A stretch of 21,846 bases of DNA from the IMG/VR virus record IMGVR_UViG_2778261514_000003; one strand, written 5' to 3'. Of the stretch, positions 1 through 16,197 are shown piece by piece; positions within the stretch are counted from its first letter, which is position 1, and each line of letters begins with the position of its first letter. This stretch comes from a virus (lineage: Duplodnaviria > Heunggongvirae > Uroviricota > Caudoviricetes). The translations under genes and the position numbers were made by a program. A model generated the notes under the pieces. The model searched no databases. It had not been told where the DNA came from and worked only from the letters and a program-made list of their open reading frames with translations.

Positions 1-63
1 CGAACCTGTATTTCAAAATTAAAGAAGACCGGCGTAAGGCGGCGCGGGGAGAGTAGACGATGA
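1..63 (+). CDS. Possible 3' end of an upstream gene truncated by the window start; basic C-terminal tail (...KTGVRRRGESRR)
   Basis: Frame 1 is open from base 1 to a TGA at 61-63, which overlaps the ATG at 60-62 of the next ORF (ATGA overlap, suggesting translational coupling). Only 20 codons are visible, so identity is unknown; a holin C-terminus is one possibility given the position upstream of the endolysin. Confidence 0.2.
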   Translation, partial: RTCISKLKKTGVRRRGESRR

Positions 64-569
64 ATAAACAATACGAACTGGTTGTTAAAGGGATAAATAA
101 TTACCCGGATAAGATTACTGTTACTGTAGCGCTGGAAACGGGTGGGTATACGTCACTGTTGTTGCCAAATGTGGTGATTGATCTTGATCGTGTTGAAGGT
201 GCCCCGCTGGAGTTTTACGAAGCTGAGGCGAAAAAGAAGGCGAAGCAGTTTTTCATGGATATTGCTGCCGGGTTATGTGAAGGGGATGAACAGTCACAGG
301 AAAAGTGCCTTTGTTCCGAAGATCGGTATACCATACAAATTAACAATGCATATAACACGATACTGTCAGAAAAAGATGATATCGAATCACGCATTGAAAA
401 ACTGGAGAATTGCGTTGTTGAACTGAATAAAAAACTGTCGACGCTGATGCCTTCTGAAGATGCAAAAAAACGCCGCGATGAGCAGTTCGCGGCGTTTTAC
501 GATTATTGCATTGAAGTTACTCGCAGGAATTTTGTGAAGGCTTTTGAGGAGAGTAAATCTCTTCAGTAA
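60..569 (+). CDS. Hypothetical protein, 169 aa, Lys/Glu-rich with predicted coiled-coil C-terminal half; function unknown (moron)
   Basis: Complete ORF with GGGAGA Shine-Dalgarno-like sequence about 7 nt upstream of the ATG. Visibly more AT-rich than the structural genes, by eye roughly 40% GC. No recognisable similarity to lambda proteins. Confidence 0.65.
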   Translation: MNKQYELVVKGINNYPDKITVTVALETGGYTSLLLPNVVIDLDRVEGAPLEFYEAEAKKKAKQFFMDIAAGLCEGDEQSQEKCLCSEDRYTIQINNAYNTILSEKDDIESRIEKLENCVVELNKKLSTLMPSEDAKKRRDEQFAAFYDYCIEVTRRNFVKAFEESKSLQ

Positions 570-779
570 GCTTAATGGCGGACGCTGCAATTAATTCAGG
601 AAGGTCCGCAAGGTCATCTGTCAGTGGGAATGATGAAAAATCGGCGGCAGTTCTGTTAAGAATTGCTTTAACTAATTCCTTTTCCTCATCCGGCAACACG
701 TTGATTAGAGCTACGACTGCTTGCCTGAGTGCGATTAAATCAGCAAAAGTTTGTTTTGGTAGATTTGGATAATCCATAG
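517..779 (-). CDS. Hypothetical small acidic protein, about 87 aa (MDYPNLPKQTFADLIALRQ...SQNSCE); function unknown
   Basis: Minus-strand ORF with start ATG at 777-779 (reverse complement) preceded by a GAGGTG ribosome-binding site. Protein is acidic (about 14 D/E versus 7 K/R). Its 3' end overlaps the 3' end of ORF 60-569 by 53 nt. The longer 161-aa version in the ORF track has no ribosome-binding site and would overlap the endolysin start. Confidence 0.45.
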
Positions 780-888
780 TCACCTCTGTGTTTATCAGAT
801 TGACATACCCTGGCCAGTGCCCACCACTGGCGGGGTGAAGGCTTAACATATCCAGGGATTCGGAACCGATAAATCCTGATAAATATCC

Positions 889-1422
889 ATGAACGCAAAA
901 ATCAAATACGGCCTGTCGGCTGTCGTTCTGGCGCTGATTGCCGCAGGGGCTTCTGCGCCTGAAATCCTCGACCAGTTTCTGGATGAAAAGGAAGGTAACC
1001 ACACCACGGCATACCGTGATGGTGCGGGTATCTGGACCATCTGCCGTGGAGCCACCCGGGTGGATGGTAAGCCTGTGATTCCTGGCATGAAGCTGTCGAA
1101 GGAAAAATGCGACCGGGTTAACGCTATCGAACGGGATAAGGCGCTGGCATGGGTGGCGAAAAACATCAGAGTGCCACTGACCGAACCTCAGAAAGCGGGT
1201 ATTGCGTCATTCTGCCCGTATAACATTGGCCCCGGTAAGTGTTTCCCGTCGACGTTTTATAAACGAATTAATGCAGGCGATCGCAGAGGAGCGTGTGAAG
1301 CGATTCGCTGGTGGATTAAGGACGGTGGCAGAGACTGCCGTATCCGCTCAAATAATTGCTACGGTCAGGTATCTCGTCGCGACCAGGAGAGTGCGCTGGC
1401 GTGCTGGGGTATCGACAGATAA
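889..1422 (+). CDS. R: Endolysin, SAR-type phage lysozyme (T4-lysozyme-like fold, N-terminal signal-arrest-release domain)
   Basis: 177 aa. N-terminal Gly/Ala-rich weakly hydrophobic segment (YGLSAVVLALIAAGASA) typical of SAR domains, followed by a lysozyme catalytic region (E...D...T within EGNHTTAYRDGAGIWTICRGAT). Position immediately upstream of Rz/Rz1. Confidence 0.88.
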   Translation: MNAKIKYGLSAVVLALIAAGASAPEILDQFLDEKEGNHTTAYRDGAGIWTICRGATRVDGKPVIPGMKLSKEKCDRVNAIERDKALAWVAKNIRVPLTEPQKAGIASFCPYNIGPGKCFPSTFYKRINAGDRRGACEAIRWWIKDGGRDCRIRSNNCYGQVSRRDQESALACWGIDR

Positions 1423-1516
1423 GCAGAATATTTTGCTGAAAAATGCGGTTTGCTCACACGGACGGATAACACGAAATCCTGCGAACTGACAAAAACTAAG
1501 TGAATAAAAGTAAAAA

Positions 1517-1550
1517 CCCCGTTTGTTGGCTGCAAGCGGGGTTTTGTGTT
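1517..1550 (+). terminator. Rho-independent terminator-like hairpin downstream of the endolysin
   Basis: 9-bp GC-rich stem (CCCCGTTTG / CAAGCGGGG, one G-U wobble) with 7-nt loop, followed by TTTTGTGTTT. An A-tract lies upstream, so it may act bidirectionally. Confidence 0.55.
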
Positions 1551-1578
1551 TCTGACCTTGGATAAGGCAAGGGAGAAC

Positions 1579-1761
1579 ATGGAAAAGTATAAACGAATTC
1601 TGTTGAGGTTGACTATGAAAAACGGCCTTGAACTGAAAGCGCCTGTAACTGATGACATCAGCAGAGCACTGGCTTTTGCCATTAAGTGGGTGGCGGTCGG
1701 TGTTGCTGTGTCCCCGATGCTGTATGGGCTGGCAAAACTGGTCATTGCGTTGAAATCGTGA
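1579..1761 (+). CDS. Small hypothetical protein, 60 aa, with a hydrophobic C-terminal segment (possible single transmembrane helix)
   Basis: ATG at 1579 preceded by AAGGGAG ribosome-binding site. The ORF-track start at 1546 is a GTG inside the terminator T-tract and is less likely. Hydrophobic stretch [28 protein letters not shown]. Confidence 0.4.
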
Positions 1762-1775
1762 AGGGAGGATTAAGC

Positions 1776-1907
1776 ATGTCAGACAAACTCATAACGCTGG
1801 CGAAGATCCTCTGTGTAATTGTCGGCATTTCATTTTCACTAATGCTGGTTGCTCTTTTTCTTTCCATGGCCTGGATGATGTTGTCTTCGTCGGGGCTGCT
1901 GGGGTGA
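1776..1907 (+). CDS. Small hydrophobic membrane protein, 43 aa ([43 protein letters not shown]); possible lysis-associated membrane protein
   Basis: ATG at 1776 preceded by a strong AAGGGAGGA ribosome-binding site. Its stop TGA (1905-1907) overlaps the GTG start of Rz at 1904 (GTGA), suggesting translational coupling. One or two predicted transmembrane helices. Confidence 0.4.
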
Positions 1908-2377
1908 ACATAAACCGAATGCTTTCCGCGTTTATCGTTATTCTGCTGGTGGCCTGTGGAGCGCTGTGGATGGCAACAGACCATTACCGTGATAACGCGA
2001 TTACCTACAAAGCGCAGCGCGATAACAAAGCCAGTGAACTGAAGCTGGCGAACGCAACCATTACTGATATGCAGGTGCGCCAGCGCGATGTTGCTGCGCT
2101 CGATGCAAAATACTCGAGGGAATTAGCCGATGCGAGAGCTGAAAATGAAACTCTTCGCGCTGACGTTGCCGCTGGTCGTAAGCGCCTGCGGATCAACGCC
2201 ACCTGTCCAGGCTCCGTGCGTGAAGCCCCCACCACCTCCGGCGTGGATAATGCAACCGGCCCCCGACTGGCAGACACCGTTACACGGGATTATTTCACCC
2301 TCAGAGAGCGGCTGATGACGATGCAGAAGCAACTGGAAGGGGCGCAGGAATATATCCGTACTCAGTGCATTAAGTAG
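1904..2377 (+). CDS. Rz: Rz i-spanin (inner-membrane spanin subunit)
   Basis: Translated ORF aligns along its length with lambda Rz as I recall it (shared ...[14 protein letters not shown]...[23 protein letters not shown]...VAAGR.RL...[17 protein letters not shown]). N-terminal transmembrane helix. Start may be GTG 1904 or ATG 1919. Confidence 0.9.
2130..2315 (+). CDS. Rz1: Rz1 o-spanin (outer-membrane lipoprotein), embedded in the +1 frame of Rz
   Basis: Fully embedded in Rz in a different frame. Lipoprotein signal with lipobox (LPLVVSAC), Pro-rich mature region ([22 protein letters not shown]) matching lambda Rz1 as recalled. Confidence 0.85.
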
Positions 2378-2400
2378 TCTTTTTATTATCCGGAGGATGT

Positions 2401-2625
2401 ATGAAGAAATTACTGGTAACCGTAAAGCCTTTTCAGGGAACAATTCCGTTCCGTATTTTGCAGCGTGGTCGTGTTCTTGTTGAAGGTTCGTTCAGTGGTA
2501 AATGTACGCAATTACACTCCCGGACCTTTCAGGTGAATGCCACGAATGAAGAGCTAACCGTTGAGTGTACGATGAATGCCGCTAAATGCCGCATGGTATC
2601 CGCTGCATTACAGCCAGTGTGTTGA
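2401..2625 (+). CDS. Hypothetical protein, 74 aa, with 4 Cys (C35, C56, C63, C74); function unknown (moron between spanins and cos)
   Basis: ATG preceded by GGAGGATG ribosome-binding site. Occupies the slot where lambda carries bor on the opposite strand, but is on the + strand and unrelated to Bor by inspection. Confidence 0.5.
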   Translation: MKKLLVTVKPFQGTIPFRILQRGRVLVEGSFSGKCTQLHSRTFQVNATNEELTVECTMNAAKCRMVSAALQPVC

Positions 2626-2885
2626 GCGACCTTATTATCCATGGCGCGGTATTGTCGCCGTATTCCCGTATTAACAGAGACCGCAGCCCGACAGGGAGAC
2701 TCCTCTGCGCGAGTGTGCGGGGATAATCAAAAACGATACACACCGGGGTTTACCGCGTTAACGGAGCGCGGCGTTGTCCCCTCATGGTAGCTGGTCCGGT
2801 GCGATGGTGGAAGAAACTGGATTTTGTTGCAACTGACAATCATTATCATTTTGCCGGGTCCTTTCCGGCGATCCGGGCCGTTACG

Positions 2886-2897
2886 GGGCGGCGACCT
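2886..2897. other. cosN cohesive-end site (12-nt GGGCGGCGACCT), with lambda-like flanking sequence including the cosQ region upstream
   Basis: Exact GGGCGGCGACCT followed by TCGCGGATTTTCACTATTTATGAAAATTTTCCGG, near-identical to the lambda genome left end as I recall it. Upstream GGGTCCTTTCCGGCGATCCGGGCCGTTACG resembles the lambda right end. Confidence 0.85.
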
Positions 2898-2934
2898 CGC
2901 GGATTTTCACTATTTATGAAAATTTTCCGGGATC

Positions 2935-3033
2935 CATGTCCGGTTTCTCTGCAAGTTAACCATATGAAAAATATAAAAACATGCTTTCCATGAACCGGAC
3001 ATGCGCAAAAAATAGACACTAAAACCGGACATG
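2935..3033. repeat. cosB-like region with three copies of an 11-bp motif AACCGGACATG (one inverted, two direct); candidate terminase small-subunit binding sites
   Basis: Exact copies at 2935-2945 (reverse orientation, CATGTCCGGTT), 2993-3003 and 3023-3033, lying between cosN and the Nu1 start, with an A/T-rich segment between the first and second. The arrangement mirrors lambda R3-I1-R2-R1 but the repeat sequence differs from lambda R sites. Confidence 0.6.
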
Positions 3034-3080
3034 ACCGGTTTTGTTGTGATTGTGAGGTGAGAGTTTTTGCGAGGTGAGGA

Positions 3081-3590
3081 GTGGCTACGCAGACTGAAGT
3101 TGCCAGGCATTTAAGTCTGACCGATCGCCAGCTTCGCAGATTGCAGAAATTGCCGGGTGCCCCGATATCGAATAAGCGAGGGCAACTGGATCTGGATGCC
3201 TGGCGCGATTTTTACATATCGTATCTGAGAAGAAGTAAAAACGATGTGCCTGATGGCGATAGCGAAGACGACTATGAGGAGAAATTGCTTATTGCCAGAT
3301 GGGAACTGACAGCAGAACAGGCTGTTACACAGCAGTTAAAAAATGAGGTGTCAAAAGGAAAACTTATTGACACCGGGTTCTGTATTTTTGCCCTCAGCAA
3401 GCTGGCAATGGCGTTATCCAGTACGCTTGATTCCATCCCTTTATCCATGCAGCGACAGTTTCCTGATTTAACACCGCGCCATCTTGACCATCTGAAAACC
3501 CTTATTGCGAAGGGGGCAAATCAGTGTGCGCGGGCGGGGGATAAATTACCGGATTTACTCGATGAATATATCAGAGCAACAACTGAATAA
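3081..3590 (+). CDS. nu1: Terminase small subunit (Nu1-like); C-terminal half lambda-like, N-terminal DNA-binding region divergent
   Basis: GTG start after GAGG ribosome-binding site. C-terminal region (...TGFCIFALSKLAMALSSTLDSIPLSMQRQFPDLTPRHLDHLKTLI...LLDEYI) matches lambda Nu1 as recalled. N-terminus (MATQTEVARHLSLTDRQLRRLQK) is a different helix-turn-helix-like segment. 3' end overlaps the A start. Confidence 0.85.
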   Translation: MATQTEVARHLSLTDRQLRRLQKLPGAPISNKRGQLDLDAWRDFYISYLRRSKNDVPDGDSEDDYEEKLLIARWELTAEQAVTQQLKNEVSKGKLIDTGFCIFALSKLAMALSSTLDSIPLSMQRQFPDLTPRHLDHLKTLIAKGANQCARAGDKLPDLLDEYIRATTE

Positions 3591-5490
3591 TATGATGAGT
3601 GCTGTCACAACAGCATTACAGCCCCTGATAAGGGCATTGCCGGTGACGCCAGTTGAATGGGCTGATCAAAATTATTATCTGCCTAAAGAATCTTCATATG
3701 GTGAGGGAGAATGGAAAACGCTGCCGTTCCAGATCGCCATCATGAACAGCATGGGGAATGATCAGATCCGGACTGTTAATCTGATTAAATCTGCCCGTGT
3801 TGGCTATACAAAGATGTTGCTGGGAGTCGCCGGGTATTTTATTGAGCATAAATCCCGAAACAGTCTGCTTTTTCAGCCCACGGATTCTGCCGCTGAAGAT
3901 TTTATGAAGTCTCACGTGGAGGCGACGATTCGCGATGTTCCCTGCCTGAAAAAACTTTCTCCCTGGCTGGGACGTAAACATCGTGATAATACCATCACGC
4001 TGAAACGCTTTTCATCGGGTGTGGGCTTCTGGTGCCTGGGCGGCGCTGCCGCCAAAAACTACCGTGAAAAATCCGTGGACGTGGTCTGCTATGACGAACT
4101 TTCCTCGTTCGAGCCGGATGTCGAAAAAGAGGGCTCGCCAACCCTGCTGGGGGATAAGCGTATTGAGGGCTCGGTATGGCCAAAATCCATTCGCGGCTCG
4201 ACGCCTAAAATAAAAGGCTCCTGCCAGATCGAAAAAGCGGCCAACGAGTCGGCGCATTTCATGCGTTTTTATGTGCCCTGCCCGCACTGTGGGGAGGCGC
4301 AGTATCTGAAATTTGGCGATGAGTCCACGCCTTTTGGCCTTAAATGGGAGAAGGACAGCCCCGAAAGCGTTTTCTACCTCTGTGAACATCATGGCTGCGT
4401 GATCCATCAGTCTGAGCTTGACCAGAGCAACGGGCGGTGGATCTGTGAAAACACGGGGATGTGGACCCGCGACGGTCTGACGTTTTTCAGCGCCGCGGAT
4501 AATGAAATTCCGCCGCCGCGCTCCATCACATTCCATATCTGGACGGCGTACAGTCCCTTCACCACCTGGGTACAGATTGTCTATGACTGGCTGGATGCAC
4601 TGAAAGATCCCAACGGCCTGAAAACCTTTGTGAACACCACGCTGGGCGAGACCTGGGAAGAGGCCGTGGGCGAAAAACTCGATCACCAGGTGCTGATGGA
4701 TAAGGTTGTGCGTTACACGGCTGCGGTGCCTTCCCGGGTGGTTTATCTGACGGCGGGCATTGACTCGCAGCGAAACCGTTTTGAGATGTATGTCTGGGGA
4801 TGGGCTCCGGGAGAGGAAGCCTTTCTGGTGGATAAAATCATCATTATGGGGCGTCCCGATGAGGAAGAGACGCTGTTACGTGTGGATGTGGCGATCAACA
4901 AAAAATACCGCCATGCAGACGGAACCGAAATGACCATTTCCCGTGTCTGCTGGGACACCGGGGGGATCGATGGCGAAATTGTCTATCAGAGGTCAAAAAA
5001 ACACGGTGTTTTCCGGGTGCTGCCGGTAAAAGGTGCATCTGTTTATGGCAAGCCGGTGATCACCATGCCAAAAACCCGCAATCAGCGGGGCGTGTATCTG
5101 TGCGAAGTGGGGACGGACACCGCAAAAGAAATTCTCTATGCCCGTATGAAAGCCGATCCCACGCCTGCGGATGAAGCCACGTCGTATGCCATCCGTTTTC
5201 CTGATGATCCGGAGATTTTTTCGCAGACAGAGGCGCAGCAACTGGTGGCGGAAGAGCTTGTGGAGAAGTGGGAAAAAGGAAAGATGCGTCTGCTGTGGGA
5301 TAACAAAAAGCGGCGTAACGAAGCGCTGGACTGCCTGGTGTATGCCTACGCGGCATTACGTGTGTCCGTGCAACGCTGGCAACTTGATCTGGCTGTACTG
5401 GCAAAATCCCGGGAAGAAGAGACGACCCGGCCAACCCTTAAAGAACTGGCAGCGAAGCTGTCCGGAGGAGTGAATGGTTACAGTCGCTGA
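3562..5490 (+). CDS. A: Terminase large subunit (gpA-like: ATPase / cos endonuclease)
   Basis: Strong colinear similarity to lambda gpA from MNISEQQ...VEWADQNYYLPKESSYGEGEWKTLPFQ onward. Start chosen at ATG 3562 rather than the upstream in-frame extension in the ORF track. Confidence 0.95.
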   Translation: MNISEQQLNNMMSAVTTALQPLIRALPVTPVEWADQNYYLPKESSYGEGEWKTLPFQIAIMNSMGNDQIRTVNLIKSARVGYTKMLLGVAGYFIEHKSRNSLLFQPTDSAAEDFMKSHVEATIRDVPCLKKLSPWLGRKHRDNTITLKRFSSGVGFWCLGGAAAKNYREKSVDVVCYDELSSFEPDVEKEGSPTLLGDKRIEGSVWPKSIRGSTPKIKGSCQIEKAANESAHFMRFYVPCPHCGEAQYLKFGDESTPFGLKWEKDSPESVFYLCEHHGCVIHQSELDQSNGRWICENTGMWTRDGLTFFSAADNEIPPPRSITFHIWTAYSPFTTWVQIVYDWLDALKDPNGLKTFVNTTLGETWEEAVGEKLDHQVLMDKVVRYTAAVPSRVVYLTAGIDSQRNRFEMYVWGWAPGEEAFLVDKIIIMGRPDEEETLLRVDVAINKKYRHADGTEMTISRVCWDTGGIDGEIVYQRSKKHGVFRVLPVKGASVYGKPVITMPKTRNQRGVYLCEVGTDTAKEILYARMKADPTPADEATSYAIRFPDDPEIFSQTEAQQLVAEELVEKWEKGKMRLLWDNKKRRNEALDCLVYAYAALRVSVQRWQLDLAVLAKSREEETTRPTLKELAAKLSGGVNGYSR

Positions 5491-13643: not shown

Positions 13644-16197
13644 TCTTGTTATTGACCTTAGTCTGGATGCTGTCCGTTTCGATGAGCAGATGAGCCGGGT
13701 AAGGCGTCATTTTTCAGGTCTGGATACCGACGCCAGAAAAACCGCCAGTGCTGTTGAACAGGGCCTGAGCCGCCAGGCGCTGGCTGCACAAAAAGCAGGG
13801 ATTTCCGTCGGGCAGTATAAAGCGGCCATGCGAACCCTGCCCGCACAGTTTACGGATATCGCCACGCAGCTTGCCGGTGGTCAGAATCCCTGGCTGATCC
13901 TGCTGCAACAGGGCGGTCAGGTGAAGGACTCCTTCGGCGGGATGATCCCCATGTTCAGGGGGCTTGCCGGTGCGATCAGCCTGCCGATGGTCGGGGTCAC
14001 CTCGCTGGCGGTGGCGACAGGTGCGCTGGCGTACGCCTGGTACCAGGGGGATTCCACGCTTTCAGAATTTAATAAAACGCTGGTCCTTTCCGGCAATCAG
14101 GCCGGACTGACTGCCGATCGTATGCTGACGCTCTCAAGAGCCGGGCAGGCAGCAGGGCTGACGTTTAACCAGGCGAGAGAGTCACTGGCAGCCCTGGTGA
14201 ATGCCGGTGTGCGTGGTGGTGAACAGTTTGATGCCATTAACCAGAGTGTCGCGCGTTTTGCGTCTGCATCCGGTGTTGAAGTGGACAAGGTTGCAGAGGC
14301 TTTCGGAAAACTGACCACCGACCCGACGTCGGGACTGATGGCGATGGCGCGCCAGTTCCGTAACGTGACGGCAGAGCAGATTGCGTATGTTGCACAACTG
14401 CAGCGTTCCGGAGACGAGGCCGGGGCCTTACAGGCGGCGAACGATATCGCCACGAAAGGCTTTGATGAGCAGACCCGTCGCCTGAAAGAAAACATGGGAA
14501 CACTGGAGACCTGGGCGGATAAAACAGGGAAGGCATTCAAATCGATGTGGGATGCCATTCTGGATATCGGTCGTCCGGAATCCTCAGCGGATATGCTCGC
14601 CAGTGCGCAGAAGGCATTTGATGAGGCGGATAAAAAATGGCAGTGGTACCAGAGCCGGAGCCAGCGCCGCGGTAAAACCTCCTCTTTCCGGGCCAACCTT
14701 CAGGGCGCATGGGATGACCGGGAAAATGCCCGTCTGGGTCTGGCAGCGGCAACGCTGCAGTCGGATATGGAAAAAGCCGGTGAACTGGCGGCAAGGGACA
14801 GGGCTGAGCGTGAGTCGTCACAGCTGAAGTATACCGGAGAGGCGCAGAAGGCGTATGAGCGCCTGCTGACGCCACTGGAGAAATATACCGCCCGGCAGGA
14901 AGAGCTGAATAAGGCCCTGAAAGACGGGAAAATCCTGCAGGCGGATTACAACACGCTGATGGCGTCGGCAAAAAAGGATTATGAGTCGACGCAGAAAAAG
15001 CCGTCCGGTGTGAAGGTGTCTGCCGGTGAGCGCCAGGAAGACCGGGCGCATGCAGCCATGCTGGCGCTTGAAACCGAGCTCAGGACGCTGGAAAAACACA
15101 GCGGTGTGAATGAGAAAATCAGCCAGCAGCGCCGGGATTTATGGGAAGCGGAAAATCAGTATGTGGTCCTGAAAGAGGCCGCCACGAAACGGCAGTTATC
15201 TGAGCAGGAAAAATCCCTGCTGGCCCATGAGAAAGAGACGCTGGAGTACAAACGCCAGCTGGCTGACCTGGGCGACAAGGTTGAACACCAGAAACGGCTG
15301 AATGAGCTGGCACAGCAGGCGGCGCGGTTTGAACAGCAGCAGAGCGCGAAGCAGGCCGCCATCAGCGCAAAAGCCCGCGGCCTCACCGACCGTCAGGCGC
15401 AGCGGGAGTCGGAAGAGCAGCGCCTTCGTGACGTGTACGGTGATAATCCGGATGCGCTGGCGAAGGCCACATCTGCACTGAAGAACACCTGGTCTGCGGA
15501 GGAGCAGCTTCGTGGAAGCTGGATGGCGGGTCTGAAGTCCGGCTGGGGCGAGTGGGCGGAAAGTGCGACGGACAGTTTTTCGCAGGTTAAAAGCGCGGCC
15601 ACGCAGACCTTTGACGGTATTGCACAGAATATGGCAGCGATGCTGACCGGCAGCGAACAGAACTGGCGTGGTTTCACCCGTTCCGTGCTCTCCATGCTGA
15701 CAGAGATTTTTCTGAAGCAGGCGATGGTGGGGATTGTCGGGCGTATCGGCAGCGCCATTGGTGGTGCTTTCGGTGGTGGCGCATCCGCTTCCACGGGGAC
15801 GGCCATTCAGGCTGCGGCGGCGAACTTCCATTTCGCGACCGGGGGATTTACGGGAACCGGTGGCAAATATGAGCCAGCGGGGATTGTCCACCGCGGGGAG
15901 TTTGTCTTCACGAAGGAGGCAACCAGCCGGATTGGTGTCGGGAACCTGTACCGCCTGATGCGGGGCTATGCGGAAGGGGGGTATGTGGGTGCTGCCGGAA
16001 GTCCGGCGCAGATGCGGCGGGCGGAAGGTATTAATTTTAATCAGAACAATCACGTGGTGATTCAGAACGACGGCATCAACGGACAGGCCGGGCCGCAGCT
16101 GATGAAAGCGGTGTATGAGATGGCCCGTAAAGGTGCGCAGGATGAGCTCCGGCTGCAGTTGCGTGATGGCGGTCTGTTATCGGGGAGCGGGCGATGA
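13624..16197 (+). CDS. H: Tail tape measure protein H
   Basis: 857 aa. Colinear similarity to lambda gpH (853 aa) throughout, including the Gly-rich C-terminal region. Confidence 0.95.
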   Translation: MSQPVGDLVIDLSLDAVRFDEQMSRVRRHFSGLDTDARKTASAVEQGLSRQALAAQKAGISVGQYKAAMRTLPAQFTDIATQLAGGQNPWLILLQQGGQVKDSFGGMIPMFRGLAGAISLPMVGVTSLAVATGALAYAWYQGDSTLSEFNKTLVLSGNQAGLTADRMLTLSRAGQAAGLTFNQARESLAALVNAGVRGGEQFDAINQSVARFASASGVEVDKVAEAFGKLTTDPTSGLMAMARQFRNVTAEQIAYVAQLQRSGDEAGALQAANDIATKGFDEQTRRLKENMGTLETWADKTGKAFKSMWDAILDIGRPESSADMLASAQKAFDEADKKWQWYQSRSQRRGKTSSFRANLQGAWDDRENARLGLAAATLQSDMEKAGELAARDRAERESSQLKYTGEAQKAYERLLTPLEKYTARQEELNKALKDGKILQADYNTLMASAKKDYESTQKKPSGVKVSAGERQEDRAHAAMLALETELRTLEKHSGVNEKISQQRRDLWEAENQYVVLKEAATKRQLSEQEKSLLAHEKETLEYKRQLADLGDKVEHQKRLNELAQQAARFEQQQSAKQAAISAKARGLTDRQAQRESEEQRLRDVYGDNPDALAKATSALKNTWSAEEQLRGSWMAGLKSGWGEWAESATDSFSQVKSAATQTFDGIAQNMAAMLTGSEQNWRGFTRSVLSMLTEIFLKQAMVGIVGRIGSAIGGAFGGGASASTGTAIQAAAANFHFATGGFTGTGGKYEPAGIVHRGEFVFTKEATSRIGVGNLYRLMRGYAEGGYVGAAGSPAQMRRAEGINFNQNNHVVIQNDGINGQAGPQLMKAVYEMARKGAQDELRLQLRDGGLLSGSGR

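Follow-up and report, generated by a model that had tools for sequence, protein, structure and literature searches.

Mini membrane-protein genes and a predicted sar-like antisense element at the endolysin-spanin junction of a lambdoid prophage lysis cassette

The 21,846-nucleotide (nt) stretch of viral DNA analysed here (IMG/VR virus record IMGVR_UViG_2778261514_000003, Caudoviricetes), referred to as the window and numbered from its first base, contains a lysis region at 889-2377 in which the endolysin gene R is followed by a hairpin, by two small open reading frames (ORFs) of 60 and 43 amino acids (aa), ORF1 and ORF2, and by the spanin genes Rz and Rz1. A previous sequence-only reading considered this an atypical cassette, in which an endolysin of the signal-anchor-release (SAR) type lacked a holin and the two small ORFs could be a relocated holin/antiholin pair. 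Following this up computationally, we arrived at a different explanation, which we consider quite probable as a whole: an ordinary lysis cassette that carries a mobile hairpin/ORF1/ORF2 module at its R-Rz junction, with a predicted control of ORF1 that would resemble that of the sar RNA of phage P22. Related loci used for comparison are cited by number (L001 and so on) where they need to be told apart.

Gene content of the lysis cassette

R (889-1422, plus strand) encodes a lysozyme of the R21/933W type, with matches to PF00959 (E 3e-24), to phrog_7 and to the solved structures of R21 (3HDE/3HDF) and RrrD (4ZPU) in the PDB, and with 95% identity to R of VT2-Sakai/933W. Reading the translation we located the catalytic motif as E35-x8-D44-x5-T50, and found that the N-terminus (MNAKIKYGLSAVVLALIAAGASAP) has lysines at positions 4 and 6 followed by a weakly hydrophobic Gly/Ala-rich stretch, with a maximum KD19 of 1.91 and a summed Hessa-type score of about +3.7. 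With basic residues ahead of a weakly hydrophobic Gly/Ala-rich helix, and with the motif and fold of a lysozyme, R is predicted to be a SAR endolysin, and this part of the sequence-only reading was correct. Likewise, a clone of 933W R is listed as a SAR endolysin construct (PMC9239132), and the endolysins of Shiga toxin (Stx) phages have been classed as SAR proteins (PMC8136144). Further downstream, Rz (1904-2377, plus strand, with a probable GTG start; PF03245, E 1e-48) encodes the i-spanin, which has a membrane helix with a KD19 of 2.46, and embedded in it is Rz1 (2130-2315, plus strand; PF06085, E 2e-20; phrog_3198), encoding an o-spanin lipoprotein with the lipobox VVSAC. The N-terminal helix of Rz and the embedded lipoprotein gene indicate a two-component spanin.

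The gene that seemed to be missing is cut by the window edge. Window 3-56 (plus strand) encodes the last 17 codons and the stop of an S21/933W-type class II (pin)holin, and its translation shows no difference from the C-terminal end of the annotated 71-aa holin of L001 and L002. The first 900 positions of the window align with L001 (E. coli STEC17-183) 4222-5121, with 896 of 900 positions aligned, which places base 1 inside an annotated holin coding sequence (CDS), L001 4062-4277, named 'class II holin family protein' in RefSeq; 'holin protein S' is annotated at the same place in phage PhiR12_1. A complete 71-aa class II holin gene is annotated upstream in L001, L002, L003, L004 and L143, and the full protein in near-identical loci has Met at positions 1 and 4, the dual-start motif M1..M4. 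These alignments show that a class II (S21-family) holin gene lies upstream of the endolysin gene in the same late operon. The sequence-only reading had named two findings that together would speak against it, a canonical holin immediately upstream of base 1 and small ORFs that are not expressed, and the first of these was found; the holin-less SAR endolysin is an artefact of the window edge, and the proposal built on it is largely explained away.

Two genes separate the holin gene S from R. The first belongs to the DUF1327/YdfR family (60-569, plus strand; PF07041, E 2e-34; phrog_2091, E 1e-84), and its 3' end overlaps convergently, by 53 nt (517-569), with an 86-aa gene on the reverse strand (517-777; phrog_2572, E 4e-50), an annotated CDS in L001 and L002. 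This convergent pair had been dismissed as unrelated, but thousands of prophages carry it between S and R, and ydfR of K-12 Qin likewise lies between holin and endolysin genes, in the order essQ-ydfR-rrrQ. The DUF1327 copy is recorded as a partial pseudogene by RefSeq in L001 and as a 169-aa protein by GenBank in PhiR12_1.

Matches to the window's first 3 kb come from the late regions of lambdoid prophages in E. coli and from those of Stx-converting phages, and the gene order in near-identical loci is holin, DUF1327/YdfR, reverse 86-aa gene, SAR lysozyme R, 60-aa ORF, 43-aa ORF and Rz/Rz1. Window 780-2640 matched 348 phage records, and at least 80% of it is covered in 1,512 of 5,426 complete E. 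coli genomes, a prevalence at odds with the label 'atypical'; at least 80% of window 1423-1910 is covered in 990 genomes, and the layout is also found in plaque-forming phages, such as PhiR12_1 with accession PV340549. The cassette resembles the S21-R21-Rz-Rz1 type of phages 21 and 933W in its 71-aa class II holin, its R21-like lysozyme with E-x8-D-x5-T and its Rz with embedded Rz1, and it resembles K-12 Qin in the DUF1327/YdfR gene between S and R. Unlike the phage 21/933W type, it has the extra reverse 86-aa gene between S and R, the hairpin and two mini membrane-protein genes between R and Rz, and an Rz without the ancestral ATG, which apparently starts at a GTG over the ORF2 stop. It is thus well supported that the region is an ordinary late-operon pinholin/SAR lysozyme/spanin cassette of a Stx-phage-like lambdoid E. 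coli prophage, with accessory modules at gene junctions.

Beyond Rz, a conserved 74-aa ORF (2401-2625, plus strand; phrog_2571, E 3e-28; an annotated CDS in L001) encodes a non-hydrophobic protein (KD19 0.76), and Nu1/A terminase, portal and other structural genes lie 3' of the lysis region. The small terminase gene is separated from the 74-aa ORF by ~450 nt of non-coding sequence, in which window 2886-2897 reads GGGCGGCGACCT, which we take to be the 12-nt cohesive-end (cosN) sequence of phage lambda.

The two small ORFs and the array at the R-Rz junction

The 60-aa product of ORF1 (1579-1761, plus strand; phrog_1115/4493/3246) has a basic helix at its N-terminus and, at its C-terminus, a membrane helix that is weakly hydrophobic. 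AlphaFold (AF2) modelled a short helix at residues 2-15 and a long one at residues 22-59, with a predicted local distance difference test (pLDDT) score of 75. The hydrophobic segment is weak, with a KD19 of 1.88 that nearly equals that of the SAR segment of R (1.91), and it is flanked by the basic N-terminus (+8/-4) on one side and by only 'ALKS' on the other. Pairwise ratios of non-synonymous to synonymous substitution (dN/dS) among E. coli and Salmonella copies were 0.09-0.40, compared with 0.24-9.3 in the two other frames, and 19 residues are invariant among 17 diverse proteins from Escherichia and Salmonella. A profile search of 1.84 billion representative proteins returned 19 relatives, all of 20-87 aa, with none that was larger or annotated. 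The orf59a product of P22 was considered as a possible relative and rejected, being unrelated on reading its translation.

ORF2 (1776-1907, plus strand; phrog_4906) encodes a 43-aa, strongly hydrophobic single-pass membrane protein (KD19 2.89), the helix of which has an N-terminal flank of +2/-1 and is followed by 14 uncharged C-terminal residues. No internal stop was present in any of 32 unique nucleotide variants, which are 43-44 codons long, and the median dN/dS was 0.34, versus 0.73 and 1.35 in the other frames. In VT2-Sakai, a 44-aa ORF2 homologue, MISDKLITLVKSLCVLVGISFLVMLVAIFFSTAWRVLTLSGLVG, lies without ORF1 between ant and Rz (L006 2498-2632), and the record of this reference Stx2 phage leaves it unannotated.

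Both small ORFs, each with a Shine-Dalgarno sequence and a hydrophobic segment, are conserved and packed tightly against Rz, and topology prediction, which the sequence-only reading had proposed as a check, gave one membrane helix in each; its view that they are real was therefore upheld. Judged from these comparisons both are genes under coding selection, and we regard it as highly improbable that they are non-functional. By the positive-inside rule, their basic N-terminal flanks predict an N-in orientation, and both lack the charged hydrophilic C-terminal tail seen in holins. Neither ORF matched a holin, antiholin, releasin (DUF2730) or defence profile in Pfam, PHROGs 'lysis', NCBIfam or PADLOC; the only profile matches were to PHROGs lacking an assigned function, with no Pfam match at a meaningful level, and the database relatives are all 'hypothetical' and nearly all from Escherichia or Salmonella. 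Literature searches on ORF1 and ORF2, made also with their RefSeq and PHROG identifiers, returned nothing, and their protein accessions are absent from the supplementary tables of a ribosome-profiling study of Sakai, in which the cultures were uninduced.

The end of ORF2 is joined to the start of Rz. The Rz frame is opened by an in-frame GTG at 1904 that overlaps the ORF2 stop (GTGA), while RefSeq places the start at ATG 1919. In the window-type allele the usual ATG-AAC-CGx (MNR) of Rz reads ATA-AAC-CGA, a frame begun at GTG keeps the Arg that corresponds in alignment to MNR in other Rz proteins, and in the variant L181 the downstream ATG used by RefSeq is replaced by ATT, leaving GTG as the only start. 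The GTGA overlap described in the sequence-only reading therefore holds, and because the ancestral ATG is mutated and L181 has only the GTG, the RefSeq start is probably mis-annotated in this allele, five codons short. On reading the window sequence we saw no good Shine-Dalgarno sequence before either GTG 1904 or ATG 1919, which makes termination-reinitiation from ORF2 the likely route of Rz translation, and we consider translational coupling of ORF2 and Rz moderately likely.

ORF1 and ORF2 belong to an array that occupies the R-Rz interval in Escherichia and Salmonella prophages, in which between one and five mini membrane-protein genes are shuffled. The combinations found, counted in a sample biased towards ORF1-containing loci, were ORF1-ORF2 (108 loci), T3b-ORF2-ORF1C-T4 (39), ORF1-ORF2-ORF2 (9) and ORF1-T4 (7), with ORF1 alone, T3 alone, ant-ORF1 and ant-ORF2 as further arrangements. 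T4 (28 aa; phrog_4493/3246) is paralogous to the ORF1 helix, and T3 (45 aa, phrog_6632) represents a third family of like build, with a basic N-terminus and a C-terminal helix. In E. coli PI7 (L004 1656-2141) and ~39 similar loci there are four mini membrane ORFs in a row between R and Rz (44, 43, 41 and 28 aa), whose stops and starts overlap or nearly so, including one GTGA junction, of ORF2 with a truncated ORF1.

The neighbours of these genes also vary. Homologues of ORF1 lie just 5' of Rz in Salmonella together with Phage_holin_2_1, lysozyme and ant, with Phage_holin_3_1 and a glycoside hydrolase (GH) 19 endolysin, or with Phage_holin_2_3 and lysozyme, and in E. coli SA31-1 both ORF1 and ORF2 come after two other holins and a GH108 endolysin. 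A distant ORF1 homologue stands after Salmonella tail-fibre genes (L007), with a similar hairpin 5' and its own terminator 3', and K-12 Qin and P22 have no gene between endolysin and spanin genes. Presence and absence among close relatives at a gene junction, as expected of a moron, is thus seen in the empty junctions of Qin and P22, the arrays of one to five genes and the tail-fibre copy, and by this distribution the mini-genes behave as mobile accessory units that are not tied to one holin or endolysin type.

Other small elements were seen in the loci compared. A 38-aa ORF that overlaps the end of the endolysin gene in Salmonella phage SPN3UB (L144 1607-1723), where it is unannotated, and in L012 (~3709-3810) has a weak match to phrog_14810 and two short hydrophobic segments around a GNDGWGW motif. 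In E. coli SA31-1 a 51-aa protein with the lipobox FLVGC (L005 1909-2064; phrog_7528) follows ORF1 and ORF2, and no Rz/Rz1 was detectable by tblastn in this cassette of two holin genes and a GH108 endolysin. In Salmonella prophages, the STnc100 small RNA (sRNA; RF02076, above gathering score) is present in several copies between the Q antiterminator and holin genes (L009 740-2201, L010 1194-1860, L012 2653-2860), and in L010 tRNA genes are also found there.

The hairpin upstream of ORF1 and its likeness to P22 sar

R is followed by a conserved non-coding stretch (1423-1512, plus strand), its 3' untranslated region (UTR), which follows R in many Stx phages; E. coli and Salmonella loci alike conserve these ~90 nt that come after the endolysin stop, also where they have a different endolysin type. 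The stretch holds an imperfect inverted repeat, GGACGGAT...ATCCTGC, which is perfect in Salmonella. Together with the hairpin that comes next, it could be a 3'UTR-derived sRNA.

This hairpin (1513-1545) is G+C-rich, has 14 pairs and is flanked by T-runs on both strands, and so forms a bidirectional intrinsic terminator; its fold is better than that of shuffled sequence, with z -4.1 on the plus strand and z -3.4 on the minus strand. The sequence-only reading had rightly recognised an intrinsic terminator after R, but its role as a boundary between operons is not tenable, as it is a conserved part of the ORF1 module. An alignment of seven loci of differing context showed no variation in the core, AAAACCCCG...CGGGGTTTT, or in the ~35 nt between it and the Shine-Dalgarno sequence, and in loci with a different upstream gene the homology to the window begins exactly at the hairpin. 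We found the hairpin and ORF1 after endolysins of the GH108 and GH19 types, after an ant gene and after a SAR lysozyme, and the T3 (phrog_6632) mini-ORFs are preceded by the same hairpin and ribosome-binding region. Window 1500-1577 is common to phages with a different downstream ORF, marking a lambdoid mosaic break. From these alignments we conclude that the hairpin terminator is co-mobile with ORF1.

In P22, the sar RNA pairs with ant mRNA and blocks ant translation (PMC13397905; PMC2629481). The P22 annotation gives the sar terminator at 15021-15058, the sar RNA at 15021-15090 on the minus strand, the ant ATG at 15091 and the promoter Psar at 15097-15125. The P22 loop CTGCGGTAACAGTC is identical in L005, and local alignment of P22 scored 35 against L005 and 29 against L003, neither of which was reached by any of 500 shuffles. 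The whole of the Rfam sar model (RF00262) aligns to the minus strand in L003, at 29.4 bits, and in L005, at 23.2 bits, both below the gathering cut-off of 43 bits. Furthermore, a covariance model (R1) built from 20 hairpin variants without P22 scored 102 bits on the window element, and its best match in the P22 genome was the annotated sar locus (15017-15093, minus strand, 21 bits, E 0.007). These searches indicate that the window hairpin is related to the P22 sar terminator by sequence homology.

An antisense RNA of ~75 nt (1505-1580, minus strand) that would cover the ORF1 Shine-Dalgarno sequence and start codon is predicted from the fold, the geometry and model R1. It would run from ~1579 to the hairpin, with two hairpins in its fold (z -3.4). 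Its putative promoter, TAGTCA-18-TATACT, is a sigma-70-like match on the minus strand inside ORF1 codons 3-13 (1586-1615), and the -10 TATACT is identical to that of Psar, which lies at +7..+12 from the ant ATG in P22, with that of the window at +8..+13 from the ORF1 ATG. Among 37 unique ORF1 sequences the -10 is intact in 34, with TATAAT in two others, and the -35 in 36, and ORFs of the T3 type have TGnTAAAAT or TGnTAATAT, an extended -10, at the same offset from their start codons. The locus has in common with P22 sar/ant a hairpin terminator, ~30 nt, a Shine-Dalgarno sequence, a start codon and a minus-strand TATACT (here a putative -10) located 7-8 nt inside the coding region, as well as homologous terminators and an RNA of 70-75 nt (predicted here) with two hairpins. 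It differs in that the downstream gene encodes a 60-aa membrane protein, where P22 has the antirepressor gene ant, in its site in a lysis cassette, where P22 sar lies in the ant moron beside the tailspike gene, and in the longer 5' hairpin of the predicted RNA. No arc or mnt gene, as found in P22 immI, is present in the window, and in some ORF1 relatives ant lies upstream of the hairpin, not downstream.

The 5' part of ORF1 is unusually uniform. In seven diverged copies, codons 3-18 show zero synonymous changes, while codons 1, 2 and 6 change amino acid and codons 19-60 diverge normally, with dS between Salmonella lineages elsewhere in ORF1 of about 0.6. Likewise, across 37 unique full-length ORF1s, third-position diversity (pi) was 0.038 in codons 3-18 and 0.198 in codons 19-60, a ~5-fold difference, and third positions segregate at 6 of 16 codons in the former and 33 of 42 in the latter (Fisher p 0.005). 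On this comparative evidence, constraint at the nucleotide level is shown to act on ORF1 codons 3-18.

Other candidates were considered and set aside. A weak match to the rimP-leader on the minus strand (Rfam, 27.5 bits) reflects the hairpin and T-run and no true leader, and the sRNAs of enterohaemorrhagic E. coli described by Tree et al. and the Pas sRNAs map upstream of the holin or elsewhere. A crude consensus scan of window 1-3200 found no plus-strand sigma-70-like site, and a plus-strand promoter from TTGACT at 1609-1614 was rejected for want of a usable -10 16-18 nt downstream. A pattern scan for the hairpin in species-representative genomes returned almost only chance matches in unrelated phyla. 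A weak match of the hairpin/antisense model in K-12 Qin (L015 5350-5433, minus strand, 19.5 bits, E 0.018), located in the interval from ynfS to the Q-like ydfT, may be no more than a terminator.

Possible control and function of the module

Taken together, these features suggest how the module could work. Without Q, the hairpin would halt stray rightward transcription, and a constitutive promoter in ORF1 codons 3-13 would produce the ~75-nt antisense RNA, which would pair with the ORF1 Shine-Dalgarno sequence and start codon and keep ORF1 silent. After induction, Q-modified polymerase would pass the hairpin and the abundant late mRNA would swamp the antisense RNA; ORF1 and ORF2 would then be made and be placed N-in in the inner membrane, and ribosomes ending ORF2 would re-initiate on Rz.

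That the antisense RNA exists and represses ORF1 is a reasoned prediction, towards which we lean slightly, and several points weigh against it. The Rfam sar model gave no match to the window's own hairpin at E up to 10, and its scores for the relatives stay under the gathering cut-off; the stems vary so little that their covariation is weak, with 6 pairs showing double changes versus 2.5 expected and most pairs invariant; and the predicted -35 is poor (4/6), while an extended -10 is lacking in the ORF1 class. At the protein level, the basic N-terminal peptide persists in distant relatives of ORF1, so that part of the 5' constraint is on the protein, and the flattened diversity of codons 3-18 could come from gene conversion or a recombination 'linker', although with a dS of ~0.6 elsewhere in ORF1 between Salmonella lineages repeated gene conversion is less economical than selection. 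As to the module as a whole, the tail-fibre copy argues that it needs no lysis context. A plain terminator or mRNA-stabilising stem, with codon 3-18 diversity kept low by protein constraint and linker recombination, would agree with a stem core that never varies and leaves covariation uninformative, with the break in lambdoid mosaics here, where 1500-1577 is shared with phages that have another downstream ORF, and with the conserved N-terminal peptide of distant relatives. We consider this account doubtful, since Salmonella lineages so diverged elsewhere share an identical block while codons 1, 2 and 6 change amino acid, TATACT equals the Psar -10 at an offset from the start codon that agrees within one base, ORFs of the third family show extended -10 motifs at an equal offset, and P22 sar was recovered by reciprocal model searches.

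As for the proteins, a relocated holin/antiholin pair, as the sequence-only reading had suggested, here taken to set off SAR endolysin release, would fit two small membrane proteins inside a lysis cassette and an ORF1 helix as weakly hydrophobic as a SAR or pinholin transmembrane domain 1 (TMD1) segment (KD19 1.88 vs 1.91). This is very improbable, however, with a complete S21/933W-type dual-start holin upstream, no holin-family match in Pfam, PHROGs or NCBIfam, and no charged C-terminal tail in either ORF. Moreover, ORF1 occurs with Phage_holin_2_1, 2_3 and 3_1 and with non-SAR endolysins (three endolysin types), many cassettes carry one of the two ORFs only, or different ones, and the independence of the mini-genes from any one holin or endolysin type itself argues against such a pair. 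Less improbable, and tentatively entertained, is a role as accessory inner-membrane regulators, which by acting on pinholin triggering, SAR release or Rz anchoring would tune the timing or efficiency of lysis. The position between endolysin and spanin genes is almost fixed in Escherichia and Salmonella, stops and starts are packed tightly against Rz, and late-only expression is expected from the terminator upstream and the lack of a plus-strand promoter in our scan. A precedent is lysA of phage P2, a membrane-protein gene between endolysin and spanin genes that is dispensable for lysis and reported to affect its timing; LysA is much larger, with ~140 aa and several membrane helices, and is not known to be related in sequence. 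On the other hand, one homologue lies after tail-fibre genes with terminators on both sides, the set of mini-ORFs is freely shuffled, and classical lambdoid cassettes (K-12 Qin, P22) work without them. The gp25 'releasin' (DUF2730) of phage Mu, which aids lysis without being a holin, is likewise a small single-helix membrane protein near a SAR endolysin, of 99 aa, oriented N-out/C-in and with a 73-aa acidic cytoplasmic domain (PMC9239132); ORF1 and ORF2 differ from it in their lengths of 60 and 43 aa, their predicted N-in orientation, the absence of a DUF2730 match and the presence of a holin in the cassette.

Alternatively, as the sequence-only reading also allowed, ORF1 and ORF2 may be morons unrelated to lysis, either type I toxin-antitoxin-like or, by chance at a permissive junction in the late operon, a factor that excludes superinfecting phages or modifies the membrane. 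This is in keeping with their patchy presence and shuffled order, with the stand-alone copy next to tail-fibre genes, where morons classically sit, which is bounded by terminators of its own, and with the R-Rz junction of Stx phages, which also carries ant. Type I toxin-antitoxin loci, for example hok/sok, ibs/sib and shoB/ohsC, encode a hydrophobic protein whose ribosome-binding site is overlapped by a cis-antisense RNA, and ORF1 is similarly a hydrophobic protein of no more than 60 aa, with a membrane helix and a predicted antisense RNA over its ribosome-binding site. Unlike these loci, ORF1 has a terminator directly 5' and no separate toxin promoter was found, and the Rfam antitoxin matches were not significant (ohsC E 6-8, none better than E 6). 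As no sense promoter for the protein genes was found, expression in the lysogen, which a conversion or exclusion gene or a toxin would need, is unsupported, and PADLOC gave no match; we hold this explanation to be possible, and no firmer than that of lysis regulators.

The predicted antisense control and the array together could also amount to an undescribed system, in which a shuffled array of tail-anchored mini-proteins (phrog_1115/4493/3246, phrog_4906, phrog_6632) has its first gene gated by a sar-like antisense RNA with a variant-specific recognition loop. We think this decidedly unlikely, but if true such a system could set lysis timing, or alternatively co-resident or superinfecting phages could interfere with, or be immune to, each other's lysis.

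With the cassette itself explained as ordinary, the residual interest of the locus is the uncharacterised mini-protein array and the predicted antisense element. Two or three mini membrane-protein families, apparently with no function assigned, reside within lysis cassettes in a large part of the E. coli sequenced so far, Stx phages with an unannotated ORF2 among them, and from the sar-related terminator at the R-Rz junction follows a specific prediction, open to testing, of antisense control within such a cassette. Since Stx phages carry members of the same array, the mini-proteins would, if they affect lysis timing, have a bearing on the kinetics of Shiga-toxin release.

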